64,000 nt of DNA from IMG/VR virus record IMGVR_UViG_3300045988_179014, positions 224,001 to 288,000 of that record; one strand, given 5' to 3'. The position numbers and the translations under genes are program-made. The notes under the pieces were generated by a model that saw nothing but the letters and a program-made list of their open reading frames with translations, made no database searches and was not told where the DNA came from. The stretch is from a virus. Below are positions 1 through 48,908 of this stretch, in pieces (within the stretch, counting starts at the first letter, position 1; every line of letters starts with the position of its first letter).

Positions 1-1111
1 TCCTTGCAGAAATCCAGACAAATGCCCTTATGGAGCATATGCCACACAAGAAGCATCCCAGAAAGCGTATGAAGCGTCCATGGCTTCCAAAACCACTATG
101 GGAATGTCGCGAACCAATAGCAAAGGTAGGACTCAAAAGGAACTCAACGAATGGGCCAAGAACTCTACAAATGTGGATGAGTTGCAACAAGTGGCCGAAC
201 AAGGAAAAGAACGTGCACTGAGAAACTTGGCAGCAAATGAACATGCCACCAGCGAACAGTTGCTTTTAGGCCGTAATAGAACCAACAATCCAGAAACCAA
301 GGAAAAGTTTGAACGGGCTGATAATTTCCCAGTTGAACACATGAGTGAGGAATTGTTGCAACATTTATTCCAACACAACTATGGCAACAAGTTGGAACAA
401 CGTAATGGTTTGAATGATGCTGGTGTTGACCGTATCATGGCTATGGGGGCTCGTGCGCTTCCGATTGCTGCCAACAGATACAATAAAGTTTCAGCTGCCA
501 AATTGCAAGAACTCACATCAGGTATGTCCAGTACTGACATTGGCTATGTTATGAGATGTAATCCACGTTATGTTCCCAAGAACATTGAGTCAATGAACAC
601 AAATGAATTAATCGCCATTGGGAGAGAATCCAATGATGCAGAGACTCTTCACCGAATAGCAACAGTTTTAACAAATAAAACTGACCGTGAACTTGAAACG
701 GCAGCTGAACAAATACTGATGAATCGAAACACATCAGATAAAACATTGAATATGCTGGTGCAACATCCAGGTATTCGTAACGAAAACAATTTTGTCAACA
801 TTTTCGCTCATCCAAATGCTTCAAATGCCACCAAACAAATAGCTGCCAAGAGGGACCGTCGTGTTGCCAGTATAGTGAAAATAAAAGATTTGGTTGCGGA
901 TAAACCCGAAACTATCAAACGTATTCAGGATACTACGCACTATGAATCTGATTACAGGAAATGTCGTTACCGCTTTGACCCTGATGTTTTGAAAGAAGCA
1001 GGATGGGATGACTATGATGTGGATACATATGTTCGTTACGAATTAAGAAACTATCTTTGGGGGCCACAATACAATTCAGCCACAGGAGAATATATCGGAT
1101 ATACGGATTAA
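1..1111 (+). CDS. Protein with shared N-terminal Cys/His module, 5'-truncated by the window edge; C-terminal domain unknown
   Basis: Frame 2 from position 2 reads PCRNPDKCPYGAYATQEASQKAYEASM in frame with ORF 80..1111. This matches the C-x6-C-P-Y..EEAQxAYExxM module seen in 7 other proteins in the window. Confidence 0.55.
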   Translation, partial: PCRNPDKCPYGAYATQEASQKAYEASMASKTTMGMSRTNSKGRTQKELNEWAKNSTNVDELQQVAEQGKERALRNLAANEHATSEQLLLGRNRTNNPETKEKFERADNFPVEHMSEELLQHLFQHNYGNKLEQRNGLNDAGVDRIMAMGARALPIAANRYNKVSAAKLQELTSGMSSTDIGYVMRCNPRYVPKNIESMNTNELIAIGRESNDAETLHRIATVLTNKTDRELETAAEQILMNRNTSDKTLNMLVQHPGIRNENNFVNIFAHPNASNATKQIAAKRDRRVASIVKIKDLVADKPETIKRIQDTTHYESDYRKCRYRFDPDVLKEAGWDDYDVDTYVRYELRNYLWGPQYNSATGEYIGYTD

Positions 1112-1127
1112 AGTCGATTCATCAATA

Positions 1128-1160
1128 CAAGAAGGTCAGAGTGTTTTATATTCTGACCTT
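1128..1160. terminator. Perfect 11-bp inverted repeat (AGAAGGTCAGA / TCTGACCTTCT) between convergent genes; likely bidirectional intrinsic terminator
   Basis: Hairpin read directly in the sequence, T-rich flank, lies between the stop at 1111 (+) and the stop at 1177 (-). Confidence 0.5.
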
Positions 1161-1176
1161 CTTTATATACGTAAAA

Positions 1177-1656
1177 CTATTTGTTTCTGACATTTTTCCA
1201 CGAATAATTTTCGATTCGAGCCTTTTCCAATAGTTCTACCAGTTGTTCGCGTTTCTGCTCACAATCAGCAATCTGCTGGTCCAATCGTTTAATTTGCCCC
1301 AAAACACCAAGCCTTTCTGTTTCCGCCAAGTATTTCTTGTGTTGACGAATACGGGAACGAATCATTGAAGCAAAACCACGGTCTGTCATCTGAATAATAT
1401 GTCGTTCCAATTTGATGTCTTGACGACCTTGAAAGCGGTCCTTCACTGTTATTACAATGTATTCATTTGTTAAATCTTTAATGGCAATGTTCTTAACGAC
1501 CCAAAACAAGTCACCTAGGTATTCCTCGTTCTTTTTATGGTAGGCGGAACACCCAAGGCTTTTCTCAACCACAGAGCGTCCCACTGCTTGTAAAGCTTGC
1601 AGTTTCAGAAAAACAAACTGACGAAACAATTTGGCATAGAACCGTTTACTGGTCAT
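1177..1656 (-). CDS. Hypothetical protein; tandem paralog of 1660..2241
   Basis: Shares DR(D/G)FASM(V/I)RSRI(H/R)QHK and LGDL(S/F)WV motifs with its neighbour. Confidence 0.5.
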   Translation of the reverse strand: MTSKRFYAKLFRQFVFLKLQALQAVGRSVVEKSLGCSAYHKKNEEYLGDLFWVVKNIAIKDLTNEYIVITVKDRFQGRQDIKLERHIIQMTDRGFASMIRSRIRQHKKYLAETERLGVLGQIKRLDQQIADCEQKREQLVELLEKARIENYSWKNVRNK

Positions 1657-1659
1657 TTC

Positions 1660-2241
1660 TTAGCTCCTTCTGTCAGGCTTTGGACTGCTTTCGCTCTTGA
1701 GTTTCTTGTGTGTACGTTGATTGGTGTAGTTAACTAAATCATTCACAGTTTTCTTGTACTGTTCCTGCAATGTTGTCAACTGGTCACGCTTTTTGAAACA
1801 ATCATGAATTATTCGCTCCAACTCTCGTATCTCAGTTCGTGCTTCAATCAACTGTTGTCTGGCAAGATGACTTTTATGTTGATGGATACGAGAACGAACC
1901 ATTGAAGCAAAATCACGGTCGCTTTTATGTATGATGTTGCGTTCTAAGCTGATTTCTTCATAATGTTGGTTATTGCTACAAACCACTGCAATATGTTCTG
2001 GCGTTAGTTCTAAAATGTCAATTTTGCCAAGAACCCATGAAAGGTCACCCAAAAACTCTCCATTGACTGTAGTCCAATGCTGTCCCAACGATTTTTGAAC
2101 CACCAATCTGCCTACCATTTGCAAATTTCGTAACTTGGTAAGAACGAAAGAGTTGATTTCTTCCTTCAAGTTGCCCCATTGGTTCTGCAACTGGTCTTGT
2201 CGAGTTAAAAGTTGCATATACTGTGATTTATTACTCATCAA
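1660..2241 (-). CDS. Hypothetical protein; tandem paralog of 1177..1656
   Basis: Clear similarity to the adjacent ORF; function unknown. Confidence 0.5.
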   Translation of the reverse strand: MMSNKSQYMQLLTRQDQLQNQWGNLKEEINSFVLTKLRNLQMVGRLVVQKSLGQHWTTVNGEFLGDLSWVLGKIDILELTPEHIAVVCSNNQHYEEISLERNIIHKSDRDFASMVRSRIHQHKSHLARQQLIEARTEIRELERIIHDCFKKRDQLTTLQEQYKKTVNDLVNYTNQRTHKKLKSESSPKPDRRS

Positions 2242-2576
2242 TATTTCCCATCATAAAGACATCAATAATAATCCAGTTGTTGATTGGTTCATTATAGGCA
2301 TCAAATGTTAACCAAGTTTGGGTTATGTGTCCTGTTTTAATGAGTCCCGTAGCACCACATGGTATAGGGGGACAGCAATTCAGCAACATGGCTATTTTGG
2401 TGTTAATATAGAAAAATTCAGGTTGCTGGGATGCAAAATCAATTATTGCATGAGCGACCTGATGCGTATGGGGCGAGGTTGTGTACGAAGTAACCTACAG
2501 CACAATGTTTCCTTTCATCTAATTAAAGTCAATGATAACTTTATCACTGACGTCTTCTAGTGATAACTTTATCATG

Positions 2577-2649
2577 GGTGCTTCTGGCGGGAATCGAACC
2601 CACTTACGCGGTTTTAGGGACCACTGCTTGACCATTAAGCTTCAGAAGC
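2577..2649 (-). tRNA. tRNA with anticodon CUA (amber/UAG-reading suppressor type); CCA not encoded
   Basis: Manual cloverleaf on the reverse complement: acceptor GCUUCUG/CAGAAGC; D-stem GCUU/AAGC with GG in loop; anticodon stem GUGGU/ACCGC with loop CCCUAAA; T-arm GUGGG-UUCGAUU-CCCGC; discriminator A. Position 33 is C, not the usual U. Confidence 0.6.
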
Positions 2650-2702
2650 CTCCGTGAGAAGTCAAATCAAAACTCCTCACTATTCACTAGAATACCACAA
2701 TT

Positions 2703-3482
2703 TCAACTGTTTGTAAAATCAGTTTCGGCTGTCAAAGCGGTTTTTGCCAGTCCTGGACGACGTAGTGGAGGATAGATTTCTGATGCGTCCCCTGCCCGAT
2801 ATAAGTCTGATGAACGTCCACCAACAATACTTGACGTGCGTTTTGTCCCCACCTCATACAGTAATCCTGGTACTGATTGAAGTTTACGACGAAAATTGCT
2901 TGGAATGATGGAAACTCCCCACACTATTTCATAGACTCGACGTAATTCTGACATGGTGAATGTTTCATCTTCCAAAAAATGATGAGCAATGGGGCTGTAC
3001 TTAATTTTGGCTCGAACCCGCTCCAGCCCATCATGAACAATGACATCATGGTCAAATGCCAACTCAAAATCATCACTGAGAACGTCTGCAACAGGGAAGA
3101 AATGAGCTTCTGCGGCATCATCTCCGGCTTTTGGCCGTTCTACTTGTGGAGCCAATGCCACATATGCTGTAGATACCACAAAACCTCGTGGGTCTCTACC
3201 AGGATTGCCGTAGGTTTTCAACTGTTCCAAGTAGCCATCTTCAATGGTTAAATTAGTTTCTTCCTTCAACTCGCGGGCAGCTGCATCATCCAACGATTCA
3301 TTGGTGTTAACAAAGCCCCCGGGAAGCGCCCATTTTCCTTTATTCGGATGGTCACCACGTTTTATCAACAAAATACATAGTTGCCCATTCCGGATTGTGA
3401 AAATTATCAAGTCAACTGTCACACCAACAGATGGATAGTCTGACATGTTATAACCAGCCAGAAAATCTTCTTCATCAATCAT
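2703..3482 (-). CDS. NUDIX hydrolase with C-terminal extension (ADP-ribose pyrophosphatase or NrtR-like)
   Basis: Nudix box GGFVNTNESLDDAAARELKEETNL (G-x5-E-x7-RE-x2-EE); adjacent to pncA and pncB. Confidence 0.65.
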   Translation of the reverse strand: MIDEEDFLAGYNMSDYPSVGVTVDLIIFTIRNGQLCILLIKRGDHPNKGKWALPGGFVNTNESLDDAAARELKEETNLTIEDGYLEQLKTYGNPGRDPRGFVVSTAYVALAPQVERPKAGDDAAEAHFFPVADVLSDDFELAFDHDVIVHDGLERVRAKIKYSPIAHHFLEDETFTMSELRRVYEIVWGVSIIPSNFRRKLQSVPGLLYEVGTKRTSSIVGGRSSDLYRAGDASEIYPPLRRPGLAKTALTAETDFTNS

Positions 3483-3551
3483 TGGTACTCCTTGTTCAAT
3501 AATGCCACTACTACTATTATATCGATAAGAATCAATATGATTATTAAGGTA

Positions 3552-3758
3552 CTACCATTGCTCTGATTGAGTGATTTTATGATTGAGTCGATGATGCCAT
3601 GTTATGTGAACAGTTCTATTGGCAACCAAAGAACCACATAGAACACAGATTGATAGCACAGGTGATTCTCCGGTTTTAGGATTCAATACTGGTAGCCTCA
3701 CAAATTCTGGAACTGGGAATGATTTGAGACCCCAAGGAGATTGGCTATCTTCATTCAT
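3552..3758 (-). CDS. Small Cys/His-containing protein (possible zinc ribbon)
   Basis: ATGA start/stop overlap with the pncA stop, suggesting translational coupling; CVLCGS...HITWHH. Confidence 0.3.
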   Translation of the reverse strand: MNEDSQSPWGLKSFPVPEFVRLPVLNPKTGESPVLSICVLCGSLVANRTVHITWHHRLNHKITQSEQW

Positions 3759-4345
3759 AGTATCTCAACGCCTGCTTTAAGAAAATCGTTAGTCAACAAT
3801 TTACGAACCTGTTCATTGTTAATTCCTACACAGAATCTTGACAAAATAGTAGTATGTAACCCTTCACGTACTGCATCCAAAGCCGTTTCTCGGACACAAT
3901 AATCAGTTGCAATACCCACGATAGCCACATTGTTTACGCCGAGTTCACGAAGCGCAGCAGCCAATGTTGTTCCATCTTCGGTCATTCCTTCAAAACCTGA
4001 ATAAGCTGCTGCAAACATACCTTTATGTACAGCAATAGAAACTCCACGTCCTCGCTCAGCATCTTTTCGTAATGCATTTGCTAAAGTTGGTACAAGACCT
4101 GCTCCTTCAGTATCAGCTACACAATGAACCGGCCAAGAATCAACAAAATCAGGGTTACTGGAAAAATGCGAACCTGGTTCAATATGCCAATCCTGAGTAG
4201 TGACCAGATAGTCATATTCATTCAAAGTCCCGTCATTAATCGCATCAGCCAAATCATGTGCAAGTTGAGACCCACCAGTAACGGCTAATGCTCCACCCTC
4301 TACGAAATCGTTCTGCACGTCCACAATAATCAATGCTGTGTTCAT
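3755..4345 (-). CDS. pncA: Nicotinamidase/pyrazinamidase (isochorismatase family)
   Basis: N-terminus ALIIVDVQNDFVEGGALAV is typical of PncA and isochorismatase-fold enzymes. Confidence 0.7.
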   Translation of the reverse strand: MNTALIIVDVQNDFVEGGALAVTGGSQLAHDLADAINDGTLNEYDYLVTTQDWHIEPGSHFSSNPDFVDSWPVHCVADTEGAGLVPTLANALRKDAERGRGVSIAVHKGMFAAAYSGFEGMTEDGTTLAAALRELGVNNVAIVGIATDYCVRETALDAVREGLHTTILSRFCVGINNEQVRKLLTNDFLKAGVEIL

Positions 4346-4346
4346 A

Positions 4347-4895
4347 TCATATTCCTGATTTTCTGCTTGTCCAGTTTAAATGTTCTTTCGCCCAGTCCAA
4401 TATACGAATGATATGTTTCAACTCAAGTCCATTGTGACTATTTGGTTGAATAACCAATGATGGCGCCAAGGTATTACCACGTACATGGTCTTCCCAAAAC
4501 TGTGGCGCTTTGTCATCTATCCAAACAAAAGGTCGTGGATTGTGTTGTTGGTGGTCTATGATGTAGTCTGCTTTCCACCGTGTCCAAGCTTTATAACCTT
4601 TTGTTTGAACATCAAAATTGGCAGGACTGTGTTGTGACAAATCTGCAAGACCCATTATTTCCGCTACTTTGCAAATATTGGCACCATCATTCCAAGTTGT
4701 GTGCCAAATGGAATCAAAACATCCAGTTGACAAAAGCTGCGATATCAATTGGACCGATTCCGGATTCCAATTGATTTGCGTTTTATGTGACAAAATTTCG
4801 CTATTATGTGTAGCGATACGTGCCCTAGTCGTGTTTGACGATGGCGTAATATTGTACACACCGTTGAAATCTGAGTATATTACAAAATTCATCAC
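4347..4895 (-). CDS. HAD-like hydrolase (degenerate motif I), function unknown
   Basis: IYSDFNGV resembles a DxDGx motif, with FVWIDD as motif IV; sits between pncA and pncB. Confidence 0.35.
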   Translation of the reverse strand: MMNFVIYSDFNGVYNITPSSNTTRARIATHNSEILSHKTQINWNPESVQLISQLLSTGCFDSIWHTTWNDGANICKVAEIMGLADLSQHSPANFDVQTKGYKAWTRWKADYIIDHQQHNPRPFVWIDDKAPQFWEDHVRGNTLAPSLVIQPNSHNGLELKHIIRILDWAKEHLNWTSRKSGI

Positions 4896-5211
4896 AGGTT
4901 CCTTAAATCAGTATCCATAATGTTTCCATTTTATCCCAGACCAGAGACAACAACAAAACCTGTGCATACTGTTCTTCAAGTTTCAAGTTTTCATGGTTCT
5001 AAGCGTCAAGGAAACATTTAGACACCTTGAAACCAGCATTACAACAATTTGTACAAACTGGAGTAAATCAGTCAACATCGTTTCCAATCACGACCACAAT
5101 GAATCACGCTACATTCGTTACTCGTTTCCAACATTGTCTCGACTGGAGAAATTAAATAATCTGTTGACAGCAATCATCTCTGAAATGTTTCATTGGTTGT
5201 TGTAATATGGG

Positions 5212-6507
5212 TTATTTTTCAACAACTTCAAACATGGGTTTTCCCGCAGAAGTCAACAATGCCTCTTTGGGCAGAGTACTCAGAGTGTACGCATGAAAAG
5301 CACGAGATTCCTCTATTGTTGGAATATGGTAGTTTCCTTCATTGACATACATTATTTGTACAGGATGAATTGAACCAGATGCGATATCGTCATGCTTCAA
5401 CGACCCAATTCGATAGTATTCACCAGTCATGATTCCATGGTCATAGGTGCGATAAGCTATTTTCAGCCCGCCAGTGGTTTTCTTCCCAGATGCATTTTTC
5501 GCTACTGGAACCATCTCTCCATTACTGTTTTCCCGTTCTACCAATTTGAACACCATTGAAGCAGTTGGATGACCTGAACCAGTTACCACACGAGTTCCGA
5601 CACCAATCCCATCAACTGGTGTTCCTTGGTCAACAAGTTCCGCAATAGTGTATTCATCAATGTCCGAGGAAAGAATAATTTTAGTGTTCACAGCTCCAAG
5701 TTCATCCAACAGGTTACGAGCTTTGACGGTTTCTTCATGCAAATCCCCAGAATCTATACGAATACCACCCAAACTAGGCCCAGCAACTTCTATTGCATTA
5801 CGAATACCTTGTTCAATGTTATATGTATCCACCAGTAATGTAGTTTCAACACCCAATGCATCAATTTGTGCTTGGAAAGCAGATTTTTCATCCTCAAAAT
5901 CTAATGTGAACGCATGGGCTGAAGTGCCAGTGGTAGGAATACCATAACACAATCCAGCTTCCAAATTTGATGTGGCACTGAAACCAGCAATATATGCAGC
6001 ACGAGCAGAATCAATAGCTGCCTTCTCATGAGTACGTCGTGAACCCATCTCAATCAGTGGCAGTCCTTGAGCGGCCACAACCATTCGTGAAGCAGCTGAC
6101 ATTACAGCAGAATCGTGGTTCAGGATGGACAATAGTATGGTTTCCAACAAAACAGCATCACCAAAGAACCCTTCAACTGTCAGAATTGGACTGTTGGGGA
6201 AATAGACGTCCCCTTCACGATATCCTCTGATACGTCCACTGAATGTATAATCACGAAGATAATCAATCGTATCAGAATGAATCATTGGGTCATTTTTCAA
6301 CAAATCAAGCTGTTCTTCTGTGAACCTGAAATCCTTCACTGCTTTAACCGCCCTGTTGACACCTCCCACAACCCCATAACGGCGACCTTTGGGAAGTGTA
6401 CGAGCAAACAAATCAAATGTGGCTTTATCAAATGCATGACCTGATTCCAAAGCCGCTTGCAGCATTGTGATTTCATACTTGTCTGTTTGAAAGGCTGTAC
6501 TTGCCAT
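5212..6507 (-). CDS. pncB: Nicotinate phosphoribosyltransferase
   Basis: 431 aa; N-terminus and overall pattern resemble the NAPRTase family (DKYEITM...); linked to pncA. Confidence 0.7.
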   Translation of the reverse strand: MASTAFQTDKYEITMLQAALESGHAFDKATFDLFARTLPKGRRYGVVGGVNRAVKAVKDFRFTEEQLDLLKNDPMIHSDTIDYLRDYTFSGRIRGYREGDVYFPNSPILTVEGFFGDAVLLETILLSILNHDSAVMSAASRMVVAAQGLPLIEMGSRRTHEKAAIDSARAAYIAGFSATSNLEAGLCYGIPTTGTSAHAFTLDFEDEKSAFQAQIDALGVETTLLVDTYNIEQGIRNAIEVAGPSLGGIRIDSGDLHEETVKARNLLDELGAVNTKIILSSDIDEYTIAELVDQGTPVDGIGVGTRVVTGSGHPTASMVFKLVERENSNGEMVPVAKNASGKKTTGGLKIAYRTYDHGIMTGEYYRIGSLKHDDIASGSIHPVQIMYVNEGNYHIPTIEESRAFHAYTLSTLPKEALLTSAGKPMFEVVEK

Positions 6508-6848
6508 CTTCGTCTCCTTGTTGTTTGTCCGGCGTTGGAGTTACCCGGTATTTTTATGACAATAATTGGTTGTCCCCGTATCCAGTGTACCATCAACTGA
6601 AAAACTACTCACCAATCAGGGTCAAGTCAATGTTTCGCAGCAAACGACGAATCTAACGTTACAAAACCAGTTTGATTACAAATAATCATATTCTGGCGGA
6701 ACAGTTAGCAATTTGAAACAATTAACATGTTGAAGTTATTCACAGATAACACTTTGACTAACGAAAACACCCGTCTGACAACACTTGATGAAGATGGCGA
6801 TGAATAAACCATGTTGATTTTTGACAAACCGGTGAATAGCCATTCTGT

Positions 6849-7352
6849 TTATTCAAGGTCTTCTGATTCCTGGGCGGAGTGTTTATCAAAATCTGGAACC
6901 TGCAATGATTTGTTAGCTTTGTCAATCATTGCTTCCAAAGATTTACGATACTTGGATTCAAACATGCGTAATTTTTCCACACGTTCCAACAATTCAGTTT
7001 CTTCCAGTTTCAAATCCTCTAATCTATCTTCTACTTCCTGCTCAGTGGTTTCGCGCCATTCTTTGATGTCATGATTTGCGGTCTCAATCATTTCGGCAGC
7101 TTTGGTTTCAGCCTCCAACACCAAATAGTCATGACGCTCCCGACCTTCGGAAACCAATCGGTCACGAGTTTCTTCGGCTTCTGTAATCAAAATTACGGCT
7201 TCTTCTTTGGCCTCATCAATCAATTGGTCATATATTTTCTGCACTGTATCCAACACCGTCACACTTTTATGGAAATCATTTTGGGTTGATTCTGTTGCAA
7301 TTTCAGACATAACCTGTTCAGAATTGGTTTCATTTTCTTCTTGGTTTGACAT
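6849..7352 (-). CDS. Acidic coiled-coil protein (DivIVA-like?)
   Basis: Highly charged E/K-rich heptad-like sequence; weak resemblance to DivIVA. Confidence 0.3.
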   Translation of the reverse strand: MSNQEENETNSEQVMSEIATESTQNDFHKSVTVLDTVQKIYDQLIDEAKEEAVILITEAEETRDRLVSEGRERHDYLVLEAETKAAEMIETANHDIKEWRETTEQEVEDRLEDLKLEETELLERVEKLRMFESKYRKSLEAMIDKANKSLQVPDFDKHSAQESEDLE

Positions 7353-7439
7353 GGCGTTTCCTTTCAGAATGCAAACAGGTCATCATGCAACACAATTGTT
7401 GTGACCATACTGTGTGCGAATATCACTCACATCTCACAA

Positions 7440-8642
7440 TCAATCCACGTTTTTCAGTTTCAACAATGCTGTCAAAGTCATTTCCGCATCTGCTAAAGCT
7501 CTATGCGCTCCTGTATAGGACTGTCCTGATGCTTCCACCAATGATTTGTTGGTGTTGTCAGGTGTTTCGGGCAGGAAGAATGTACTGACCATGCGAGTGT
7601 CCAATACTTCCAGCCCATTCGCTTGTAATGCATTGAAACCGAAAAGATTGTGCTGCAACTGTCCAATTTCAAATTTGGCATTATGCGCCACCATGACAGA
7701 ATCACTCAACATGGACAACACCTTGGTTTGCTTTTCTGGGTCATTCACGAAAACTTCTTTGTCTTTAATCTCATCCCATGAAATATGATGAACATGCTCA
7801 GCACCAGTACCATGAACTTTGGCGAAGTCTTGAGGAACTCCACTCATGAATGACATGGTTTCAACACGACCATCTGGATAACGTTTGACAATACCTACTT
7901 CAATGATGTTTGAATATGGACCTTTGTCAACATATCCACTCTCTTGAGAAGCGGCAACCTCCAAATCAATTGATACCAAAGGTTTATCTGTTCTCAAAGA
8001 CATATTGGCCCACATATGACGGTATGCCTCAGTGCGGGTCATTCCAGTTGCCATCAAATCATCAACTTGTTTCTTCACGTCTTCAGTTGACATGCCTGAA
8101 TACGAGGAAATCACTTGATTCGCGTCGGCCTCGTTTTCAGATGTGATATCAGGGTGGAAATTGTAAGGACCGTTCTTCTTCTTTTGTTGCCGTTTCCAAT
8201 CCTCAAATTTTGCTTGATTCAATGCTTTCTGGTCATCTCTTCGTTGTTGCAATTGGGCTCGTTCTTCAGAAGACATGTATCTTTCAGCTTCACGTTCTTT
8301 AGCTGTAGCCAAGAAATTCAATTGTTTGGCTTTTTGCACCGTCTGGAACCAACGAACACTGGCCAGAGCTTCTGGATTACCTTCAGCGGTTTTCAGTTCG
8401 TTGGCCAGTTTCCACATATTCCTTTTTGCAGCCCGAGATTTCAGAAACAACTCCTCTATTCGTTCAGCATTTGATGTTGAGGACTTGGACATTGTGTTCA
8501 CTACTTGATTGGACATTCTACGTTCATATGCGTCACGTGCTTCAGCTATAGAGTTGTAGTGGAACTCATCAGAATATGGGCATTGTCGTTTAGCAGAGCA
8601 ACGATTTACAACACCATTTTGAGGGTTTAAATGAAATAACAT
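7440..8642 (-). CDS. N-terminal Cys/His module fused to a DEDDh 3'-5' exonuclease (DnaQ-like)
   Basis: N-terminus NRCSAKRQCPYSDEFHYNSIAEARDAYERRM; C-terminus IDLEVAAS...HNAKFE...H-x4-D exonuclease motifs. Confidence 0.6.
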   Translation of the reverse strand: MLFHLNPQNGVVNRCSAKRQCPYSDEFHYNSIAEARDAYERRMSNQVVNTMSKSSTSNAERIEELFLKSRAAKRNMWKLANELKTAEGNPEALASVRWFQTVQKAKQLNFLATAKEREAERYMSSEERAQLQQRRDDQKALNQAKFEDWKRQQKKKNGPYNFHPDITSENEADANQVISSYSGMSTEDVKKQVDDLMATGMTRTEAYRHMWANMSLRTDKPLVSIDLEVAASQESGYVDKGPYSNIIEVGIVKRYPDGRVETMSFMSGVPQDFAKVHGTGAEHVHHISWDEIKDKEVFVNDPEKQTKVLSMLSDSVMVAHNAKFEIGQLQHNLFGFNALQANGLEVLDTRMVSTFFLPETPDNTNKSLVEASGQSYTGAHRALADAEMTLTALLKLKNVD

Positions 8643-8882
8643 GCCATCCTCCTATTTCAATCTTACATAGTTTGTATCTAACGATTCAACTACTCATGAT
8701 TCTTTCAAGAAGTACAGTTAACCGTGATTCTGACTGATAGTGAAATCGTAGCACGCAAACGAGCAATGTTGACTACAAAATAATATTGCGTTTCCTATTA
8801 TGCCCAAACCATCCTGAAATGACTCCAATGAATGCGTGAATATGCAATTATATTTCGAATTATGGAAAGCACAAACCAAGCT

Positions 8883-9025
8883 CCTAGAAGTGTTTTGAGC
8901 GTGATTTTGAAGGTATCACGAAGAAGCATTTCACGTAAAACTTCTTGAAAACACGAAAAACGCCCCCGAATAGGCTTGGTAGAATCTGGGCTATTCAAGG
9001 GGCGCTACAGAAAGCGATTTTATGG
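8883..9025 (-). repeat. Copy A of a ~150-bp repeated intergenic element containing an intrinsic terminator (minus-strand orientation)
   Basis: Aligns with 53573..53725 and 58233..58390; imperfect inverted repeat CGCCCCCGAATAGG...CCTATTCAAGGGGCG, followed on the minus strand by TTTTTCGTGTTTTC. Confidence 0.6.
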
Positions 9026-9051
9026 TTTTCTCATACACTCATTTTATGGTT

Positions 9052-19476: not shown

Positions 19477-20219
19477 TCAGCAGCTTCCGCCACCAGCTGA
19501 ATTGCAATACTTTCCGTCAAATGCTGATTCTGGGATAGCGTTTCTTTCAAAAAAATACAACTCACGATAAAAATTCTCTCGTTCTGCATTTGTGAACAGT
19601 GTTCGTGGTAGGGAATGGTGCTCGTTCCGGTATCGATGACTCATTACAAAACTTCGTAATGCTGTTTTCAAGCTTTTAGCAACGCGGTCAGAAGATTTCT
19701 TGTTGCTAAAAGCTTTACTGACATCTGAACGAGCATGACGATATATTCGGTCCAAATAACGCCATTGATTGAAGCGTATGGCATTGTAATAAGATTTGTA
19801 CGGATTCCTGATAGTCACCAAACCTGAAGCATGAAGGCCAACTTCGGAGGGAATGCCTTTAAGTAATTAATGAGCTAGGTTGAATATTGAGGTAATACGA
19901 ACATCTACACCCTCGTTACTGAACACATGGTTAAAATCACGGTTTTGGATGTCGCTGTGATAATCAAAACATCTCGGTCACTGTCAGAATGATGCAGTCC
20001 GTAAACGCTCGAACCCAACAATCCATACCCCACAATATTGCCTTCCATTACCGGCAAAAGGCTTTTGTGGTGTTTCTGATAGTATCTTCTGCTGAGTTCC
20101 AACACCCATTCTGCTTCTGTCATTGTTGGTATTTTCAGAATCGGTTTCATAGGAGCATAAACTGTATTAGATTGATTGGGAATATCGTGCATAAAGGCCT
20201 CATAAATGATAAACAGCAA
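19477..20219 (-). pseudogene. Possibly split or frameshifted minimal nucleotidyltransferase (two ORFs, 19905..20219 and 19477..19821)
   Basis: Upstream piece carries hG[GS]-x10-DxD (LGSSVYGLHHSDSDRD) and ends with TAG soon after; the downstream ORF is in a different frame. Confidence 0.3.
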
Positions 20220-38618: not shown

Positions 38619-39488
38619 TTATTGCATGTTTCCATGTTGATTGTTTTGAACAGTTTTCGCAAAATTGGTCCATAACGTTTGAGGGTCGTTGTCGCTCAAA
38701 CCTGACATGCAACCATCATTCAATTCAACCACAGCCCAGCTACCATCAGGGTATTCAGCCATGTCAATCACATAGAACCGCGCCAAGTGTTTTGTCCGGT
38801 CAATTGCATCCATTAAAGCTGTCATGTATTTCGTAAAATCAAGTGGCTGTACACCACTGTATTCAACATGATTGCTCCAATAGAACCCTTCAGAAAGAAT
38901 TCGTCCATCAAGAACAAACACACGTCTTTCATGAAAAATCGGCCTTGAATCCACTGCTTTCCCCAATAGCCGAAAATGCTGAAATGGACGAATCACAATA
39001 CGTTGACTCCCCACATATGTATCACTGAGAACATTGTTGATAATCCTCAGCAAATCATGTTTAGTCTCCGCATAAGCAGCATCAAACCATTTGTTCTTTA
39101 TGGAATTGGTCTCTCCCTTGACAAAATATTCTCCTTCAGGGAGTTTCGGAATATCTTCTATAGAATAGGCTTTCGCTGTCAACCCATCCAAAAGATGGAC
39201 CCATGCAAACAAATCAGCAATGTTTCTATGTTGACTATAACTGTTGACCAGATGACTTCCCAGTAATTGAACCTCTTTGTCCAACTCTGGCCCGAAAGGA
39301 ATTGCTCGGAAACGCGGAATCACCAATGACCCAGCGGGAATTTGGCTGACCATGGTTCCCATATGAGTTCCAAACACTTCTCGGGCAGCATCCAACTCAT
39401 CAGATTCCAAAATGCCTATTTGTGAATCAGAATAAAAATAGTATGGTTGCAGCATTATTTCCCCTTGATATTGTTCGCCAAATCTCAT
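38619..39488 (-). CDS. ATP-grasp family ligase (Ter-associated biosynthetic module)
   Basis: RRVFVLDGRIL...VIDMAEYPDGSWAVVELNDG, typical ATP-grasp C-terminal core. Confidence 0.45.
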   Translation of the reverse strand: MRFGEQYQGEIMLQPYYFYSDSQIGILESDELDAAREVFGTHMGTMVSQIPAGSLVIPRFRAIPFGPELDKEVQLLGSHLVNSYSQHRNIADLFAWVHLLDGLTAKAYSIEDIPKLPEGEYFVKGETNSIKNKWFDAAYAETKHDLLRIINNVLSDTYVGSQRIVIRPFQHFRLLGKAVDSRPIFHERRVFVLDGRILSEGFYWSNHVEYSGVQPLDFTKYMTALMDAIDRTKHLARFYVIDMAEYPDGSWAVVELNDGCMSGLSDNDPQTLWTNFAKTVQNNQHGNMQ

Positions 39489-39509
39489 TATGGGTATGAT
39501 GATGCTAAT

Positions 39510-39731
39510 TTATGGAAGAGTTGACCAAATTTCTTTGCAGGTCGGGCAAATAGGAAATTCCTTGTAATCTCCGAAAGGTACCCACTTTTTACCACACAAC
39601 GCGGTAGCCGGAATACCATCAAAAATGGCACGCTCCAGCTCATCTTTTCTCACATAATGGGCGAACTTATCGTGATTCCCATCATCATTCACAAGTTGCT
39701 TTTCTTCAACCAGCTCATCCAAAACAGTCAT
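39510..39731 (-). CDS. Small Cys-containing protein (DUF3039-like?)
   Basis: CGKKWVPFGDYKEFPICPTC motif. Confidence 0.35.
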   Translation of the reverse strand: MTVLDELVEEKQLVNDDGNHDKFAHYVRKDELERAIFDGIPATALCGKKWVPFGDYKEFPICPTCKEIWSTLP

Positions 39732-39987
39732 TCATACTCCTATCAATCAAAACCTTGAATCCATGATAACACTCCTTCACCACTTGAACAAGTTTGAAGT
39801 TGTCACCAATCAACAGCACTAGATAAACTCATTCCCCCGACCGAACCTGTTACAAGGCAAACACAATTGAATCCTCCTTCATGTATCTTGTGTTTTTGTT
39901 GAGATTATCAGAACAGGAGTGTGGATTGTTTTAACAAAATAGTTCCAAGCATGTGTTATTATGTTAGCTTCTCTATTATGTTATTCA

Positions 39988-40785
39988 TCAACAAACAACA
40001 TGGTCTCGAACAGTGCGCACAATTTCTACTGAAGCTGCCGAACCTTTTTCACAAGTGCGTTTCATGTTGCCAGCATTGTTTCCTTGATTCACGCCATGAA
40101 ACGGAACAATGAACTCAGCAACTTCATCAGCCATGGACAAATCCAGAATACTGTCTCCAGCAGCAAAACTATAACCATAGCCAAAACGAGCAATGATTTC
40201 GGCTACTGCACGTCCTTTACTGATTGGACGAGGAATCAAATAATGTTTTCTTCCTTGTCGTGAATACATTTGATTGTAGTCTTCAGCCATTGCAGCAATC
40301 ATTGTTTCCAGTTTTTGATGATATCCTAACTCAGTGACTACATATGCGAAAAACCCATCAGCATCATGAACTGCTCTGACCCCATCCAATGTGGAAAAAG
40401 TTTTCACAACTTGCTGCAAAACCTGACTTGGAGAATATTCTTCCTGTAGCACCAAGTCTTGCATCATTCGGGTCCAGTTCATGTCTTCCTGTCCATCAAT
40501 TAGTATTTTTGCACCATTGAGAATGATTGCACAATTGTATTGAATCTGCGGGAATTGGATTCTTTGGAATTGACGCATGGTTCGTGTGGTTGTTGGAATG
40601 AAATCAAAAACCTTGGCAGCATGGTCATGTAGAATCTGATATGTTTCCCAGGCCATATAACCTACTGGGGAATTATTACGTTCCTCAACCACCACATGAC
40701 CAGTTGTTTTCTGTCCATGTGAATACAACCCCCGCTGTGAAAAGACAAGAGTATCATCCAAATCAGAGAACAAAACAGTTTTCAT
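39988..40785 (-). CDS. HAD-superfamily phosphatase (Ter-associated)
   Basis: Motif I LFSDLDDTLVFS at the N-terminus. Confidence 0.55.
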   Translation of the reverse strand: MKTVLFSDLDDTLVFSQRGLYSHGQKTTGHVVVEERNNSPVGYMAWETYQILHDHAAKVFDFIPTTTRTMRQFQRIQFPQIQYNCAIILNGAKILIDGQEDMNWTRMMQDLVLQEEYSPSQVLQQVVKTFSTLDGVRAVHDADGFFAYVVTELGYHQKLETMIAAMAEDYNQMYSRQGRKHYLIPRPISKGRAVAEIIARFGYGYSFAAGDSILDLSMADEVAEFIVPFHGVNQGNNAGNMKRTCEKGSAASVEIVRTVRDHVVC

Positions 40786-41945
40786 ATTGCTGCCATTCCG
40801 GTGTGTCCAATGGCTCCACGACTGTATTGAGGATGAATTAAACCAACACAGGCATACGGCAAATCAGACTTTTCCTCCACAGGCACATTTCGTTGATGTG
40901 CCAAAAGTAGAACATGGGTCAATGCGGTTTTGTCTTCAGGTCGTATGAGAATCCGCCATGGTACTCGTCGCAATAAAACTCTCGTTGTCTCCCCTACCCC
41001 AGGTTTCACCAAGTTGACATCATGAATACCATATTCCTCACTGATTTGTTCCACCATGGTCCACCCCATCCAAGACGGTTCATCATATTCGTGAACTCTC
41101 AAAGCCTCATCCACAACATCAAACAATTCAGAACCAAAATGTTCAATTACAGCATCAATGAAATACTGTGACACATCCATAGCAGCAAATTTACGATAAA
41201 ACTTGGCTCCATGGTAATCATTAGGCCCAATACTGTGATTCAAAACAGTACGTGAAATCAAACCCGACACAGTAGAGTTCAAACATGCTGATGGAATCAG
41301 ATAATCCTCCCTGGTCCCATAAACACGAACGCAAGAACCAGGGTCCGCCAGAACTGCCAACTCACTGTTGAAAACAACGCCTTCCTGTTCTGCAAAAAGT
41401 TTCAACGCTTGTGAAAGTTCCTTCGTTATGGCTCCTTTACCCGTCCATCCATCAATGAAAACAACACAGTCAGGGTTGTGATGTTTTGCAATATAGCGCA
41501 ACGCATTGAAATCGATACCTTTTCCTCGAACAATACTGACCGCATAGTGTGGAACCTGTATCTGATAACGCTGCTCCAAATAACGTTTGACCAGAATTCC
41601 AACAGGTGTCCCCGCACGAGCCAACGACACCAGAACCGGATTCCCGCCTCGCAGAAACCGAACCTGTTCAGCTACCATGCCAACCGCTTTCGCCAGTTTC
41701 TCACTGTTTTGGGCAAGAGATGAAAAGAACAATTGAACATACTCGTCAGATGGTACATATTCCACAGGCAAGGATTCAGCATAGTGTGCTCTACCTGATT
41801 GTATTGCTTCTTCCCGTTCCTCAACTGATGCTTCCAGTTTGCTTCTGGACAAATCTTTCAACAACCAAGCAACATCATCAAAACAGTATGAACCGAACTG
41901 AGGGCCATGCAAAGGTTTCGGTAATATAACATCTTCTGGAATCAT
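40782..41945 (-). CDS. Ter-cluster-associated protein, possibly divergent PRTase-like
   Basis: CVVFIDGWTGKGAI weakly resembles a PRTase nucleotide-binding loop; gene overlaps both neighbours, so likely in an operon. Confidence 0.3.
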   Translation of the reverse strand: MIPEDVILPKPLHGPQFGSYCFDDVAWLLKDLSRSKLEASVEEREEAIQSGRAHYAESLPVEYVPSDEYVQLFFSSLAQNSEKLAKAVGMVAEQVRFLRGGNPVLVSLARAGTPVGILVKRYLEQRYQIQVPHYAVSIVRGKGIDFNALRYIAKHHNPDCVVFIDGWTGKGAITKELSQALKLFAEQEGVVFNSELAVLADPGSCVRVYGTREDYLIPSACLNSTVSGLISRTVLNHSIGPNDYHGAKFYRKFAAMDVSQYFIDAVIEHFGSELFDVVDEALRVHEYDEPSWMGWTMVEQISEEYGIHDVNLVKPGVGETTRVLLRRVPWRILIRPEDKTALTHVLLLAHQRNVPVEEKSDLPYACVGLIHPQYSRGAIGHTGMAAI

Positions 41946-43267
41946 ATGGATTGTCCTTCCGTCATTGTCAAAACTGTTATAGTACTGGTTCGCCCTTGAA
42001 ATGCTCTCAACAATGGTTCAATACTGTAATGCCCTATTTGACTGTGAACAGGTATGACAATATGGTCATAATCCCAACCAATGTTGTAAGCATAACGTTT
42101 CACATTGTCACATTCCAACAAATAACGAATCCGGTCTTTGATAGCATAATCATCCCTGTCAGCGCTGAGAACCGGCGACCTTGTGGTAGACGAAAAATTG
42201 ACATCATATCCGTCTGTTTCCAATGAAGAAGCCAACAGGAAAGGCAGGAACATGTCTTCCTCTATTCCCAATACCAGAACCTTCTCATCAGGACACACAG
42301 CGGTTTTCTGTTTCCATTCATCAACCAAATGAAACAAATTCCAGAAATCATCATTCTGCACACCTTGTGAAAGAGGTTTGTATCCACTATTGGTGACTTC
42401 ATGTCTATATACTGTAGTTTTGCGTTTAGTTTTTACAGGTTCAGGTAATTGTTTCAACTGATTCAACAAAGGTTGCGCTTTTTTCACTGAATCATTCGGA
42501 ACATTCAACTCCATGGAAAGCAATGAAACAACAGTGATTTGAATACCCAGATTGTGTGCAAACTGTTTGAAAACCTTGTGTGCTTTTTGAGTTCTTAAAT
42601 CCGTGAGTGTGGCAATATAATAATGAGTGTGATGCTGATGTGATTCAAACAGTTCAATGGTGTTCATAACTGTGTTCCCTGTGGTCAGTTCATCATCCAC
42701 CAAAACAATGATTCGTTCAGGTTCATCCAATATGTTTGTTGTTTCTGGTGTGATGTGATGAGAACTGGCATGAGAATGGGACTCTTCAAAACTGCCATAA
42801 TCTTGATACTCACTGATGGGGTAACGGGTGGAATGAATATAACTTGCTCTCAGATGTGATGCCACCAGTGCGCCCAAATTGGTGGCAGTTTCAGCATAAC
42901 CAAACACAGTTATTGGTGTTGACAGTTTGTGCAATAATGGTAAAGATGAGTAATGGCTCTTCAACGCTTTTTGCATCATATGAGCGGATTCCAGCTGTAG
43001 CATGAGTGAATCCACAGTGGGCGATGTGTGGTGGGCCTGTATCTGCCATGCCAGTTCTGCGGCTGCATGATTGATTATACTTGGTTTCTGCGGAACATGT
43101 TTCCCCAGAAGATTGGACACCAACAAATGTGCTCTTTTCGGGTTTTTACGTAATGCCATACCCAGAAATGACTGAAAAGCTTGAAATTGTGTAGTGTTTT
43201 TGGGTCTAATGTTCAAAGCATTGCTGACAAAATCACCAGACCATGTGTTGTGTAGTGTTTCAGTCAT
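41942..43267 (-). CDS. Phosphoribosyltransferase (type I PRTase domain with N-terminal extension)
   Basis: RIIVLVDDELTTGNTV is the canonical PRPP-binding motif. Confidence 0.6.
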   Translation of the reverse strand: MTETLHNTWSGDFVSNALNIRPKNTTQFQAFQSFLGMALRKNPKRAHLLVSNLLGKHVPQKPSIINHAAAELAWQIQAHHTSPTVDSLMLQLESAHMMQKALKSHYSSLPLLHKLSTPITVFGYAETATNLGALVASHLRASYIHSTRYPISEYQDYGSFEESHSHASSHHITPETTNILDEPERIIVLVDDELTTGNTVMNTIELFESHQHHTHYYIATLTDLRTQKAHKVFKQFAHNLGIQITVVSLLSMELNVPNDSVKKAQPLLNQLKQLPEPVKTKRKTTVYRHEVTNSGYKPLSQGVQNDDFWNLFHLVDEWKQKTAVCPDEKVLVLGIEEDMFLPFLLASSLETDGYDVNFSSTTRSPVLSADRDDYAIKDRIRYLLECDNVKRYAYNIGWDYDHIVIPVHSQIGHYSIEPLLRAFQGRTSTITVLTMTEGQSI

Positions 43268-43270
43268 TGA

Positions 43271-44443
43271 TTACACCATATATTGTTCCAGGAAATCAGC
43301 AAAACCCACATGTTCACGACTTACTCCAAACATTCGGGCACGGGATTGAATGTTTCGCGCCCAAGCAGTGTGTGGTTTGACTTCATTCATTTTGTTTCCA
43401 TATGTGGAAGCCATGACACCACCATTGTCGTCCCTGCTCAAAATGTCCATGGCATCAACATACTCTTCATGTGAAACAACCATCAGAGAATGAACAATGC
43501 CAACATGACTGGGGTGAATGACTGTTTTTCCTGTTATCCCGTTCAACTTGTCCAATTGTACTTCGCGAATGAAAGTGTCATTGCCTTCTGTCACCAGTTT
43601 TGCACGCAGGGTTTTGTCATGGGCAAAAATGCTTTCACACAACAATGGTTTGAAAGTACGTTCAGAAGGCGCAAAATGTTCCCAGACCGCGCCAGTGATG
43701 ACACGATTGTCTTCTGCTCGTCCCAACATGTTCACAATGTCCGAAATGGCAGAAGCAACAACATGGACATCATAAACAGTGAATTCTCGGGACCGGCGCA
43801 ACCCATACGCAGAAGACATGTCAGTGGCTCCAATACGTACTGCCAATAAAGAATCCATTGAATGGGCCAGAATACGTTGCACATGGGAGAGAGTGTAGTG
43901 ACGGGTGTCCTGATGAATAATCCGAGGCGACTCAATCACTGGCATGTAATACAAGCTGGTCGTAGCAGTTCTGTTGTAACACTGCAACACATCCACAAAT
44001 GCTTGACCACGAGACAAATCATCAAACTTGGGAAAAACAAAGCCAGTCAAACTTGATAGCAATATACCGTTTTGTTCAATAATGTGTTCTAAATGTTCAG
44101 GTGAGCGAACACGTACAAACAACAATGGCAAATCAGAATTACCAATTGCTGCTAATTTGCGTAATAATTCATACAAATTGTGCTCTGCTTCTTTCACCTT
44201 CTCGTCTGGTATCGAATCCTCCAAACAGAGAACCACCGAAGTGGTATCGTTCTGATAGGCTTTTTTCAAATCCTCTAACAAATCAGAACGTGTGGCAGGC
44301 ATATACAATGTTGCTCCCAAAGAATAACTGAGCAATTTTTTATCAGTATATTGGTTGAATCTTTCCGGGAGGCGATAGAATAAATCTTTTTCAGCTGGAG
44401 TGTTACGTAAAAAATTGAAATGTCTCACAATCAGTCCTATCAC
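43271..44443 (-). CDS. HpcH/HpaI aldolase / citrate-lyase beta-like TIM-barrel C-C lyase (Ter-associated)
   Basis: Size, position in the PRTase / HAD / ATP-grasp operon, and overall pattern; assignment is tentative. Confidence 0.4.
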   Translation of the reverse strand: MIGLIVRHFNFLRNTPAEKDLFYRLPERFNQYTDKKLLSYSLGATLYMPATRSDLLEDLKKAYQNDTTSVVLCLEDSIPDEKVKEAEHNLYELLRKLAAIGNSDLPLLFVRVRSPEHLEHIIEQNGILLSSLTGFVFPKFDDLSRGQAFVDVLQCYNRTATTSLYYMPVIESPRIIHQDTRHYTLSHVQRILAHSMDSLLAVRIGATDMSSAYGLRRSREFTVYDVHVVASAISDIVNMLGRAEDNRVITGAVWEHFAPSERTFKPLLCESIFAHDKTLRAKLVTEGNDTFIREVQLDKLNGITGKTVIHPSHVGIVHSLMVVSHEEYVDAMDILSRDDNGGVMASTYGNKMNEVKPHTAWARNIQSRARMFGVSREHVGFADFLEQYMV

Positions 44444-45180
44444 AAATGTGCGAAAAATGCTTGCACGCTATTGTCGTTATTGTCAGTGTTGATAGTTGAT
44501 GTTTCTTGTGCTGGTCTGTCCGTTATTCTAAAAGTTGCGTGAACACTGTGCCGAAACTGTTCTTGTCTCAATTCCAGTGCTGAATTAACTGTTGAAATGT
44601 AAAGAACTTGGTTGGGGCGATAATTCATTGAAACAGTTGGACTCTTAATTGTCCCCAATTTCAGGCTTGTGTCGTCTTTGGGAGCTATTACCATTCGGCG
44701 TAGTTGTTTGTAGTGCCGTAAAGACATCACCAGTGCACCTTTGTGAAATTCGATTAATGGACGATTACCGAATCTGGGTGGTTCACGTTCCGGTAATGAA
44801 GCTTGTATTCTCAGTTCGCCTGTAACGGCATCAACAACATTGGAGGGTGGTGGAGTAACCCCAGGAGCGTATAAGAACCCTGAGGCCCCATTCTGAGCCT
44901 CCCAGGCCACATAAGCAACCCCAGTTACCACCAGTGAACCAATAGCAGTTTGCCGTGTATTGAAACGCACCACTGGATGGTCACAGTCAAACACCCAATC
45001 ATGTTTCAATACAGGTACTTCATAACCAATTGAGACAGTAGTGTTTTCTTCAGAATCGTTTTTGGAAACAAGTTGGATTGAAGTTGATACCGATGGTGGC
45101 GAAGTTACCAGCTCTCCTGTTCGTAATCGTCTACGTATGTAGGTAATGAATGGTTTGGGGTCACGTAAATTTACACTCAT
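44440..45180 (-). CDS. Hypothetical protein in the Ter cluster
   Basis: ORF overlapping its neighbours (operon). Confidence 0.35.
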   Translation of the reverse strand: MSVNLRDPKPFITYIRRRLRTGELVTSPPSVSTSIQLVSKNDSEENTTVSIGYEVPVLKHDWVFDCDHPVVRFNTRQTAIGSLVVTGVAYVAWEAQNGASGFLYAPGVTPPPSNVVDAVTGELRIQASLPEREPPRFGNRPLIEFHKGALVMSLRHYKQLRRMVIAPKDDTSLKLGTIKSPTVSMNYRPNQVLYISTVNSALELRQEQFRHSVHATFRITDRPAQETSTINTDNNDNSVQAFFAHL

Positions 45181-45731
45181 TACAGAGACACCTTAAAATC
45201 ATTGGCCACTTGAACAATACCACCAGCATATCCTTGACCCACCGCACGGAACTTCCACTCAGTATTACGACGATAAATTTCCCCCATGAGAACTGCATTG
45301 ATGTCCGATGAGGATTGGGGCAACTCAAAACGAACCAATTCAGAAAGCGCACGGTCCATTATCCGCATATGAGCATGACGAACTGCACCAAAATTACCGG
45401 GATTACGAACTTCCGGGTCCACATATAGGAGAAAAACCATTTTGGACACATTTTCTGGCACTGCTGACAACGTTATTTCGATTTGGTCATTGTCTTCATT
45501 CCCTTCAACGTACTGAACAGTTCCATCAGTTGTTGACAATTGGTTGAAAAACAGAAAATGCTCATCACTCAAAGCGTGACCATTTTCCCCCACAAGAATA
45601 ACGGCTGGAACGATTTGCAGTTGTGGTCCTGAACCTTGAATTGTGTTCCACCCAAACCCAACCACCAAATCATTCAGTAAAGGGTTTTCTCGTGTGATGG
45701 ATACATTCGCGCCAGGTTGCAATGAGGCCAT
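45180..45731 (-). CDS. terD: TerD-family stress protein
   Basis: TerD-domain similarity to the two downstream paralogs (GWN...GENG, NFGAVRHAHMRI). Confidence 0.7.
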   Translation of the reverse strand: MASLQPGANVSITRENPLLNDLVVGFGWNTIQGSGPQLQIVPAVILVGENGHALSDEHFLFFNQLSTTDGTVQYVEGNEDNDQIEITLSAVPENVSKMVFLLYVDPEVRNPGNFGAVRHAHMRIMDRALSELVRFELPQSSSDINAVLMGEIYRRNTEWKFRAVGQGYAGGIVQVANDFKVSL

Positions 45732-45794
45732 AGTATCTCCTTATTCTAACGATTAACCTAATAATAGCACGAAACATATAATATGGCACATACA

Positions 45795-46268: not shown

Positions 46269-46324
46269 GCCTTACCAGAAAAGGAGGGGCGAACATGAAC
46301 CACCCCTCCTCATCTCAAATAGAT

Positions 46325-47554: not shown

Positions 47555-47654
47555 ATGAATTCCTTTTGATTCTATGGATTTTTATGCTGAAACGGATAGG
47601 GTGGAATTGGTTTTGCTTCCTTCCCACCCCATCCGCTTTGATTATTCATCACAA

Positions 47655-48236: not shown

Positions 48237-48276
48237 GATTTTTCCTTTCGTATTTGATGTTATTGTTTAATCTATA

Positions 48277-48873: not shown

Positions 48874-48908
48874 GTTAAACTCCTTTTACAAATAGGATAG
48901 GTAATTGA

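Follow-up and report, generated by a model that had tools for sequence, protein, structure and literature searches.

A conserved phage tRNA with anticodon CUA in a jumbo phage genome region that uses TAG as an ordinary stop

The stretch of viral DNA analyzed here (64,000 nucleotides, hereafter the window) carries a tRNA gene at 2577..2649 on the minus strand whose anticodon, CUA, is of the amber-suppressor type. A first-pass annotation, which left the strand unstated, had reported a genuine tRNA with this anticodon, and the call stands. ARAGORN, which that annotation had proposed running, returns the gene (anticodon cta) as the sole tRNA of the window. The Rfam tRNA model RF00005 is matched end to end (model positions 1-71) by 2579..2649, scoring 54.4 bits (E 6e-09; the gathering score is 29). 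Folding by minimum free energy yields the cloverleaf (-24.8 kcal/mol; z = -3.2 versus shuffles). Syntenic homologues and covariation, described below, support the same call. The window protein adjoining the tRNA matches exactly on the ENA contig ERZ27262748 k119_28504 (337,400 bp; locus L014, the source contig), which carries phage-type genes, in agreement with the earlier suggestion that the tRNA is phage-encoded. With CUA at positions 34-36, a sound tRNA structure, and a location on this contig, the gene corresponds to what is known as a phage Sup-CTA tRNA.

The tRNA has the canonical elongator features of 7/4/5/5-bp stems, a 7-nt anticodon loop, G18G19, and a UUCGA T loop. The acceptor stem, GCUUCUG/CAGAAGC, is followed by A8 A9; the D stem GCUU/AAGC encloses the D loop AAUGGUC; the anticodon stem GUGGU/ACCGC closes the loop C32 C33 C34 U35 A36 A37 A38 (CCCUAAA); the variable loop is 4 nt long (GUAA); and the T stem GUGGG/CCCGC carries the loop UUCGAUU. 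The 7-bp acceptor, GG, TTCGATT, CCCUAAA, and C33 had thus all been read correctly from the sequence. The discriminator, A73, is followed by CCCA, so that the 3' end reads ACC-CA and CCA is not encoded in register. The tRNA departs from near-universal bases at A8 (instead of U8), C21, and C33 (instead of U33). C33 had rightly been called atypical, as U is almost universal at that position. It should be noted that U8 and U33, near-universal and both missing here, are conserved features of tRNAs and not criteria for membership in the Rfam family.

The tRNA is flanked on both sides by elements that recur in a diverged homologue from a metagenome, locus L017, which is introduced below. In a consensus scan, 2689..2717 on the minus strand matches a sigma-70-like promoter whose -10 element is of the extended type (TTTACA, 17 nt, TG-n-TATTCT; TGgTATTCT), ∼35-40 nt upstream of the tRNA 5' end and overlapping the stop codon of the neighboring Nudix gene. 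Upstream of the L017 tRNA lies the equivalent TTGACT-17-TGaTATACT (10749..10777), and in both lineages these are putative promoters identified as matches to the consensus. In an RNA fold of 2390..2690, a leader hairpin (GUGAGGAGUU...GACUUCUCAC) immediately precedes the tRNA at 2654..2680 (minus strand), and L017 has a hairpin in the equivalent place between promoter and tRNA (10796..10819). The 3' trailer (2528..2576, minus strand) was found by sequence search to hold two exact copies of the near-palindrome TGATAAAGTTATCA, at 2561..2574 and 2533..2546, 28 nt apart, a count reached by 0 of 100 shuffles. Copy 1 is kept in two close relatives (L015 and L016), while copy 2 sits inside a 10-bp hairpin followed by UUUAAUU, giving a terminator-like site at 2551..2528. 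Read directly from the sequence, the L017 trailer consists of a GC-rich hairpin and then a T run. The layout common to both lineages suggests a self-contained unit that would be transcribed by the host polymerase.

The paired copies of TGATAAAGTTATCA could be a protein-binding site or paired hairpins. An operator for the NrtR-like regulator encoded next to the tRNA is unsupported, since the motif does not occur upstream of the NAD genes and is confined to the tRNA trailer except for one site with a single mismatch in the helicase gene (62893..62906). A theta (HDV-like) ribozyme, a minimal HDV-like ribozyme directly downstream of the tRNA, has been described in association with suppressor tRNAs (PMC10879173). 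A permissive Rfam scan of 2200..2800 gave no ribozyme match, with the presence of a theta-ribozyme model in Rfam 15 unconfirmed.

The tRNA lies 54 nt downstream of a gene for an NrtR-like Nudix regulator (2703..3482, minus strand; Pfam NUDIX and NrtR_WHD) and has the orientation of the surrounding genes. The Nudix gene served as the syntenic anchor for fetching relatives and is treated here as context, outside the tRNA unit itself. The surroundings had been described as a mobile-element-like region, a description that did not hold: the tRNA is located where a jumbo phage genome encodes NAD salvage and auxiliary metabolism, and the source contig is an uncultured jumbo phage, not a small mobile element. 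A compact NAD+/ADP-ribose module (2703..14064, minus strand) comprises, in order, this Nudix gene, a conserved Cys-rich 68-aa ORF, a PncA-like isochorismatase, a HAD_SAK_2 protein, NAPRTase, an RNase_T-type exonuclease, an ADP-ribosylglycohydrolase, and three tandem ADP-ribosyltransferase paralogues (373-413 aa). The PHROGs label of the paralogues, 'head maturation protease', is wrong. The module core from NAPRTase to Nudix is syntenic in L017 and in two further metagenomic loci, L031 and L018. The remaining genes of the region include a RecE/DNA-polymerase-exonuclease-like protein, a ribonucleotide reductase, and a large helicase weakly similar to those of Lak phages, and the 17 kb added beyond the window contain metabolic and replication genes only. 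The window has a GC content of 41.6%.

Two further gene groups were observed. Genes for RNA repair, encoding a 2H-SAK phosphoesterase, a polynucleotide kinase-phosphatase (PNKP), and HAD_SAK_2, lie at 14179..15966 (minus strand) and 4347..4895 and suggest a defense against host tRNA/RNA nucleases. A Ter-type stress cluster at 38619..50000 (minus strand) consists of R2K ATP-grasp, StiP-PELOTA, PRTase_2/TRSP, C-C bond lyase, TelA, and TerC/DUF475 genes.

Relatives of the locus are sparse. A megablast search of window positions 1..6000 against a phage collection gave no match, deposited phage records contain no close relative and yielded weak protein matches only, and the tRNA body has no exact match in IMG/VR. 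Using the Nudix anchor, we retrieved from IMG/VR six loci of one clade (66-68% identity, contigs of 180-398 kb), and none of the six has a tRNA at the Nudix position. The same anchor retrieved 80 loci from a metagenome collection. There, ARAGORN detects a CUA tRNA directly after Nudix in the source contig L014, in L015 and L016 (98% Nudix identity), and in L017 (76%); L031 (75%) lacks it. The window, L017, and L031 represent three deep lineages at about equal mutual distances. The tRNAs of L017 and L016 score 54 and 61 bits, respectively, with the Rfam model. The L017 tRNA has the canonical loop CUCUAAA (U33), an encoded CCA, and a 5-nt variable loop, and has A8 and A73 in common with the window tRNA, whereas C33 is confined to the window sub-lineage.

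L017 corresponds to JGI Ga0308157_10000026 (681,631 bp), with a GC content of 34% compared to 42% in the window lineage, and its synteny downstream of the tRNA is wholly different from that of the window. If a single phage genome, it would rank among the largest known. It also encodes a 679-aa amidase (15862..17901) with a signal peptide and LGFP-like repeats, features that hint at a Gram-positive (actinobacterial-type) host. The NAPRTases of L017 (6509..7858) and L031 (6127..7437) are 69% identical and contain a perfectly identical stretch of ∼48 residues, GTELGGIRIDSGDLHEETVNARKLLDSLGAVNTKIVLSSDIDEYTIAE, which could be a recombination tract or reflect very strong constraint.

Covariation was evaluated in an alignment of the four homologues and one similar IMG/VR tRNA. 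Seven of the 21 pairs have changed on both sides, 96.2% of cells are standard-paired, none of 500 shuffles reaches these values, and no slid register comes close. The comparison indicates that the anticodon and the fold were kept while the flanking DNA turned unalignable. Because CUA, compensatory changes, and a promoter-like site are found in both lineages, the gene looks selected and expressed rather than like a decaying copy. In a scan of 185,579 genomes for a window-type body, tRNAs with A8 (G7-A8-A9-G10, GAAGCU) proved rare. Those confirmed by ARAGORN (loci L102, L103, L107, L109-L111, L114, L118, L124, and L126) come mostly from short MAG contigs, where 6-29 tRNAs stand in a dense array; these arrays are probably phage-derived and binned into MAGs. 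Their isotypes are Trp, Lys, Met/Ile, Arg, and Phe, with one CUA tRNA on a Thalassovita MAG contig (L129).

The first-pass annotation had named Gln, Glu, Lys, and Trp tRNAs as possible parents, each one anticodon mutation away. The part concerning Lys(CUU) and Trp(CCA) is upheld, as the body of the tRNA is closest to these two and to Thr, and also to Arg(UCU). Gln and Glu fit poorly. Recognition by GlnRS relies on a weak 1-72 pair (U1-A72), G2-C71, G3-C70, and G73, and the window tRNA instead has G1-C72, C2-G71, U3-A70, and A73, which resemble phage Lys(CUU) and Thr tRNAs. Gln tRNAs are also the least similar class in a reference set that is biased, having been selected with a pattern of our own. 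When the anticodon is masked, the nearest neighbors are mixed (Thr, Arg, Met/Ile, Lys, and Trp); given this mixture and the self-selected reference set, the isotype result reads as 'not Gln-like'. According to identity rules and engineered amber suppressors, U35 together with A73 would favor LysRS, and U35 alone would often allow GlnRS.

The anticodon arm, GGUC(U/C)CUAAAACC, is a tRNA-Trp arm in which C35 has become U, and tRNA-Trp genes of phages rank highest among the internal BLAST matches. The arm recurs in the Sup-CTA tRNA of phage Phass-1, in the tRNA(cta) of the Sinorhizobium jumbo phage Phosso, and in 29 IMG/VR loci. A37 A38 after A36 form what is outlined in the literature as an 'extended anticodon' that favors suppression (Yarus 1982, reviewed in PMC11231383). 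Since the Trp-type arm recurs in phage suppressors and contains the suppression-favoring A37 A38, the resemblance to tRNA-Trp may be convergent rather than inherited.

Whether TAG is recoded was evaluated in 81,265 bp, comprising the window and two flanking loci (contig ∼48,139-129,403; 24% of the contig); the remaining ∼256 kb, expected to hold the hallmark and late genes, lies outside the 81 kb analyzed. Greedily chosen standard-code ORFs cover ∼89-91% of the window. With TAG read as sense, the longest stop-to-stop frames in the window become barely longer, the coverage of greedy ORF sets gains no more than in controls with TAA or TGA as sense, and no large ORF pair is joined by TAG anywhere in the 81 kb, with one small-ORF exception (3552..3758 and Nudix). 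On these grounds, TAG recoding within the window was rejected. TAG ends 8 of 81 ORFs and 4 of 43 independently called genes (9-10%), among them a 285-aa methyltransferase (a called gene) and a 654-aa exonuclease-like ORF, and TAG stops are not depleted in the window lineage. The commonest stop is TGA (47/81 ORFs, 23/43 called genes), followed by TAA. The gene at 19905..20219 does end in TAG and meets a second in-frame stop after 9 codons, as had been reported, and the earlier statement that no clear read-through target was found in the window is confirmed and now extends to 81 kb. Over the 81,265 bp, we found neither in-frame TAGs in conserved genes nor a gain in coding density with TAG as sense, the signs of genetic code 15. 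Some code-15 phages also carry an accessory release factor 2 or an aminoacyl-tRNA synthetase; annotation of the 81 kb turned up no gene for any release factor or synthetase, and no recognizable virion or lysis proteins are encoded there. The 81 kb is written in the standard code, with TAG as an ordinary stop. An amidase/endolysin-type gene located 5 kb from the L017 tRNA is likewise intact in the standard code.

The small-ORF exception concerns the 68-aa ORF of the NAD module (3552..3758, minus strand), which has a TAG stop. Past this TAG the frame stays open and runs into the Nudix gene, which lies 23 codons downstream. Suppression at this TAG would give a 352-aa fusion with Nudix. Such a fusion was rejected, as the Nudix ATG is preceded within the spacer by a Shine-Dalgarno sequence and a -10-like box and the orthologous small ORF in L017 is a separate gene that ends in TAA. 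The arrangement is probably a coincidence.

We consider it likely that the window tRNA is a functional tRNA decoding UAG. For its use, our current and still tentative hypothesis, to which we assign somewhat less than an even chance, is that of a functional phage amber suppressor whose targets lie in the unseen sequence. Host RNA polymerase would transcribe the tRNA as its own small unit, and host enzymes would trim the transcript and complete its CCA end by addition or repair. Charging would then fall to an aminoacyl-tRNA synthetase of the host, most likely LysRS or GlnRS, because U35 and A73 are read by these enzymes and the signatures for Gln, Trp, and Thr are incomplete. The charged tRNA would compete with release factor 1 at UAG. 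As the 81 kb follow the standard code, the codons for the tRNA to read must be in the unseen ∼256 kb; if other partly recoded phages are a guide, they would most likely be TAGs lying in frame within late or hallmark genes. A strong association links suppressor tRNAs to recoding, with structural and lysis genes as the places where recoding is concentrated (bioRxiv 10.1101/2021.08.26.457843). In jumbo phages, recoding occurs in regions of hallmark genes, whereas most of the genome is free of it (PMC13037316). C33 probably makes the tRNA a weaker suppressor, which would fit a genome in which ∼10% of the visible genes end in TAG. A suppressor lacking targets would be costly with a tenth of the genes ending in TAG, yet the tRNA is conserved, and targets in the unseen genome are therefore favored. 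Several findings speak against this hypothesis: the 81 kb give no hint of TAG as a sense codon and use it regularly as a stop, release factor and synthetase genes did not turn up there, the L017 amidase gene is uninterrupted, the tRNA has unusual bases at A8, C21, and C33, and L031 and the 67%-identity clade lack it. A more specific version, which we regard as unlikely, is that a non-Gln suppressor (with a Lys/Trp/Thr-type body, A73, and A8) in a lineage of 0.34-0.68 Mb phages would support a partial reassignment of TAG to an amino acid other than Gln (e.g., Lys) in late genes, with C33 tuning suppression down so that TAG would act as a stop early and as a sense codon late.

A different possibility is that the tRNA is a stand-alone suppressor in a genome written wholly in the standard code, giving low-level read-through with no in-frame TAGs to serve. 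It may then be an early step toward recoding, buffer amber mutations, disturb host termination, or produce C-terminally extended variants. We consider this doubtful but deserving of real weight. The visible 81 kb with its standard code and 9-10% TAG stops is consistent with it, as is the attenuated activity that C33 suggests, and at many IMG/VR loci that have a comparable CUA tRNA, reading TAG as sense brings no local increase in coding density. Borges et al. propose that acquisition of a suppressor precedes recoding (bioRxiv 10.1101/2021.08.26.457843); however, TAG is not depleted in the window lineage, unlike in the pre-recoding state that was proposed. The price would be read-through of ∼10% of the genes with no obvious benefit, and such a cost, together with the retention of CUA across lineages at ∼76% identity, argues for a specific use. 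We also considered that the gene is non-functional or drifting neutrally, a former phage Lys(CUU) or Trp(CCA) tRNA that acquired a mutated anticodon and is decaying. CUA is one substitution away from either CUU or CCA, the body is nearest to the Lys and Trp tRNAs of phages, A8, C21, C33, and the missing CCA depart from the consensus, and related lineages lack the tRNA. We nonetheless find decay quite unlikely, as both diverged lineages have CUA, compensatory changes hold the stems, the Rfam scores are good (54-61 bits), the promoter-like sites are kept, and the L017 tRNA has U33 and an encoded CCA. A8, being common to both lineages, is a family trait and not a mark of decay.

Two further readings set aside the decoding of UAG by a conventional amino acid. 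We give almost no credence to a tRNA-Pyl that inserts pyrrolysine at UAG, for which the anticodon is the one point in favor; the label 'Pyl' that ARAGORN assigns is given to every CUA tRNA and reflects the anticodon only. A tRNA-Pyl has a 6-bp anticodon stem, a 3-nt variable loop, a small D loop without GG, no TPsiC sequence, and one base between the acceptor and D stems, with pylS/pylBCD nearby. The window tRNA contradicts all of these features with a 5-bp anticodon stem, a 4-nt variable loop, G18G19, TTCGA, and two acceptor-D bases, and no pyl genes are found among the annotated neighbors. Very unlikely, in our estimation, is a non-translational role, with the tRNA-shaped RNA or DNA acting as a site for recombination, a module boundary, a signal for processing, or a decoy against host nucleases that target tRNAs. 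The complete difference in downstream synteny between the window and L017 means that the tRNA marks a module boundary, and the RNA-repair genes (PNKP, 2H-SAK, and HAD_SAK_2) indicate that tRNA cleavage is contested. It is established that tRNAs encoded by phages can counteract anticodon nucleases (PMC10264068, PMC11464382), and the eLife paper on phage tRNAs against nucleases mentions neither position 33 nor suppressors. On the other hand, the neighborhood has no integrase, and neither a decoy nor a boundary would need a conserved CUA together with the suppression-optimal A37 A38. Replacement of a nuclease-cleaved host tRNA is ruled out, as a CUA tRNA decodes no sense codon and could take the place of the cleaved tRNA at none.

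Among the known ways in which viruses change genetic code during infection, suppressor tRNAs of phages are the principal one, and to our knowledge nearly all described cases read TAG as glutamine. Here, the tRNA is conserved, accompanied by promoter-like signals, and not Gln-like, and the visible genes of the jumbo phage still stop at TAG. Should the unseen late genes hold TAG codons in frame, the jumbo phage would be partly recoded, and the amino acid inserted might be a different one. If those genes hold none, it would be a clear example of a suppressor kept without recoding, which bears on how a code change starts. Either outcome would be incremental to existing work rather than a new principle.

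The closest points of comparison are the Sup-CTA tRNAs of TAG-recoded (code 15) phages, namely crAss-like phages, Lak, and Phass-1 (OQ749652.1). The Phass-1 tRNA is likewise phage-encoded with anticodon CUA, and its arm GUGGU-CUCUAAA-ACCAU compares with GUGGU-CCCUAAA-ACCGC in the window, while L016 also has ACCAU; the T arm GUGGG-UUCGAUU-CCCAC is a further likeness to the code-15 and Phass-1 suppressors. Suppressors of the Phass-1 type, however, carry the Gln acceptor signature (unpaired U1, G2-C71, G3-C70, and G73), from which the window tRNA differs in G1-C72, C2-G71, U3-A70, and A73 as well as in A8 and C33, and code-15 phages show in-frame TAGs, of which the 81 kb have none. Phosso (PV764938.1, 469 kb) provides a CUA tRNA in a cultured jumbo phage. 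Like the window tRNA, it has a GCUUC... acceptor start and A73, and its arm reads GCGGU-CUCUAAA-ACCGC; unlike the window tRNA, it has U8, U33, a 5-nt variable loop, and an encoded CCA. The overall similarity of the two tRNAs is modest, and the surrounding genomes have no detectable relatedness. The E. coli suppressor Su7/supU is a tRNA-Trp with anticodon CUA that retains the acceptor stem and G73 of tRNA-Trp and receives mainly Gln. Its loop CUCUAAA and GGUC...AACC stem represent the Trp-type arm with C35 changed to U, and L017 has exactly that loop, whereas the window tRNA differs from Su7 in its Lys/Thr-like acceptor stem and A73. Standard-code phages that acquired a suppressor tRNA have been reported as well (a relative of Agate; Borges et al., bioRxiv 10.1101/2021.08.26.457843). 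The Agate relative resembles the window in having a suppressor tRNA in a genome, or part of one, that is otherwise in the standard code, but its tRNA suppresses TGA in a low-GC genome depleted of TGA stops, whereas here TAG makes up 9-10% of stops at 41.6% GC. The literature already documents phage CUA suppressor tRNAs well, also in jumbo phages and, on occasion, in phages that use the standard code; what is unusual in the window tRNA is its non-Gln body, the rare A8, C33, and its coexistence with regular TAG stops.
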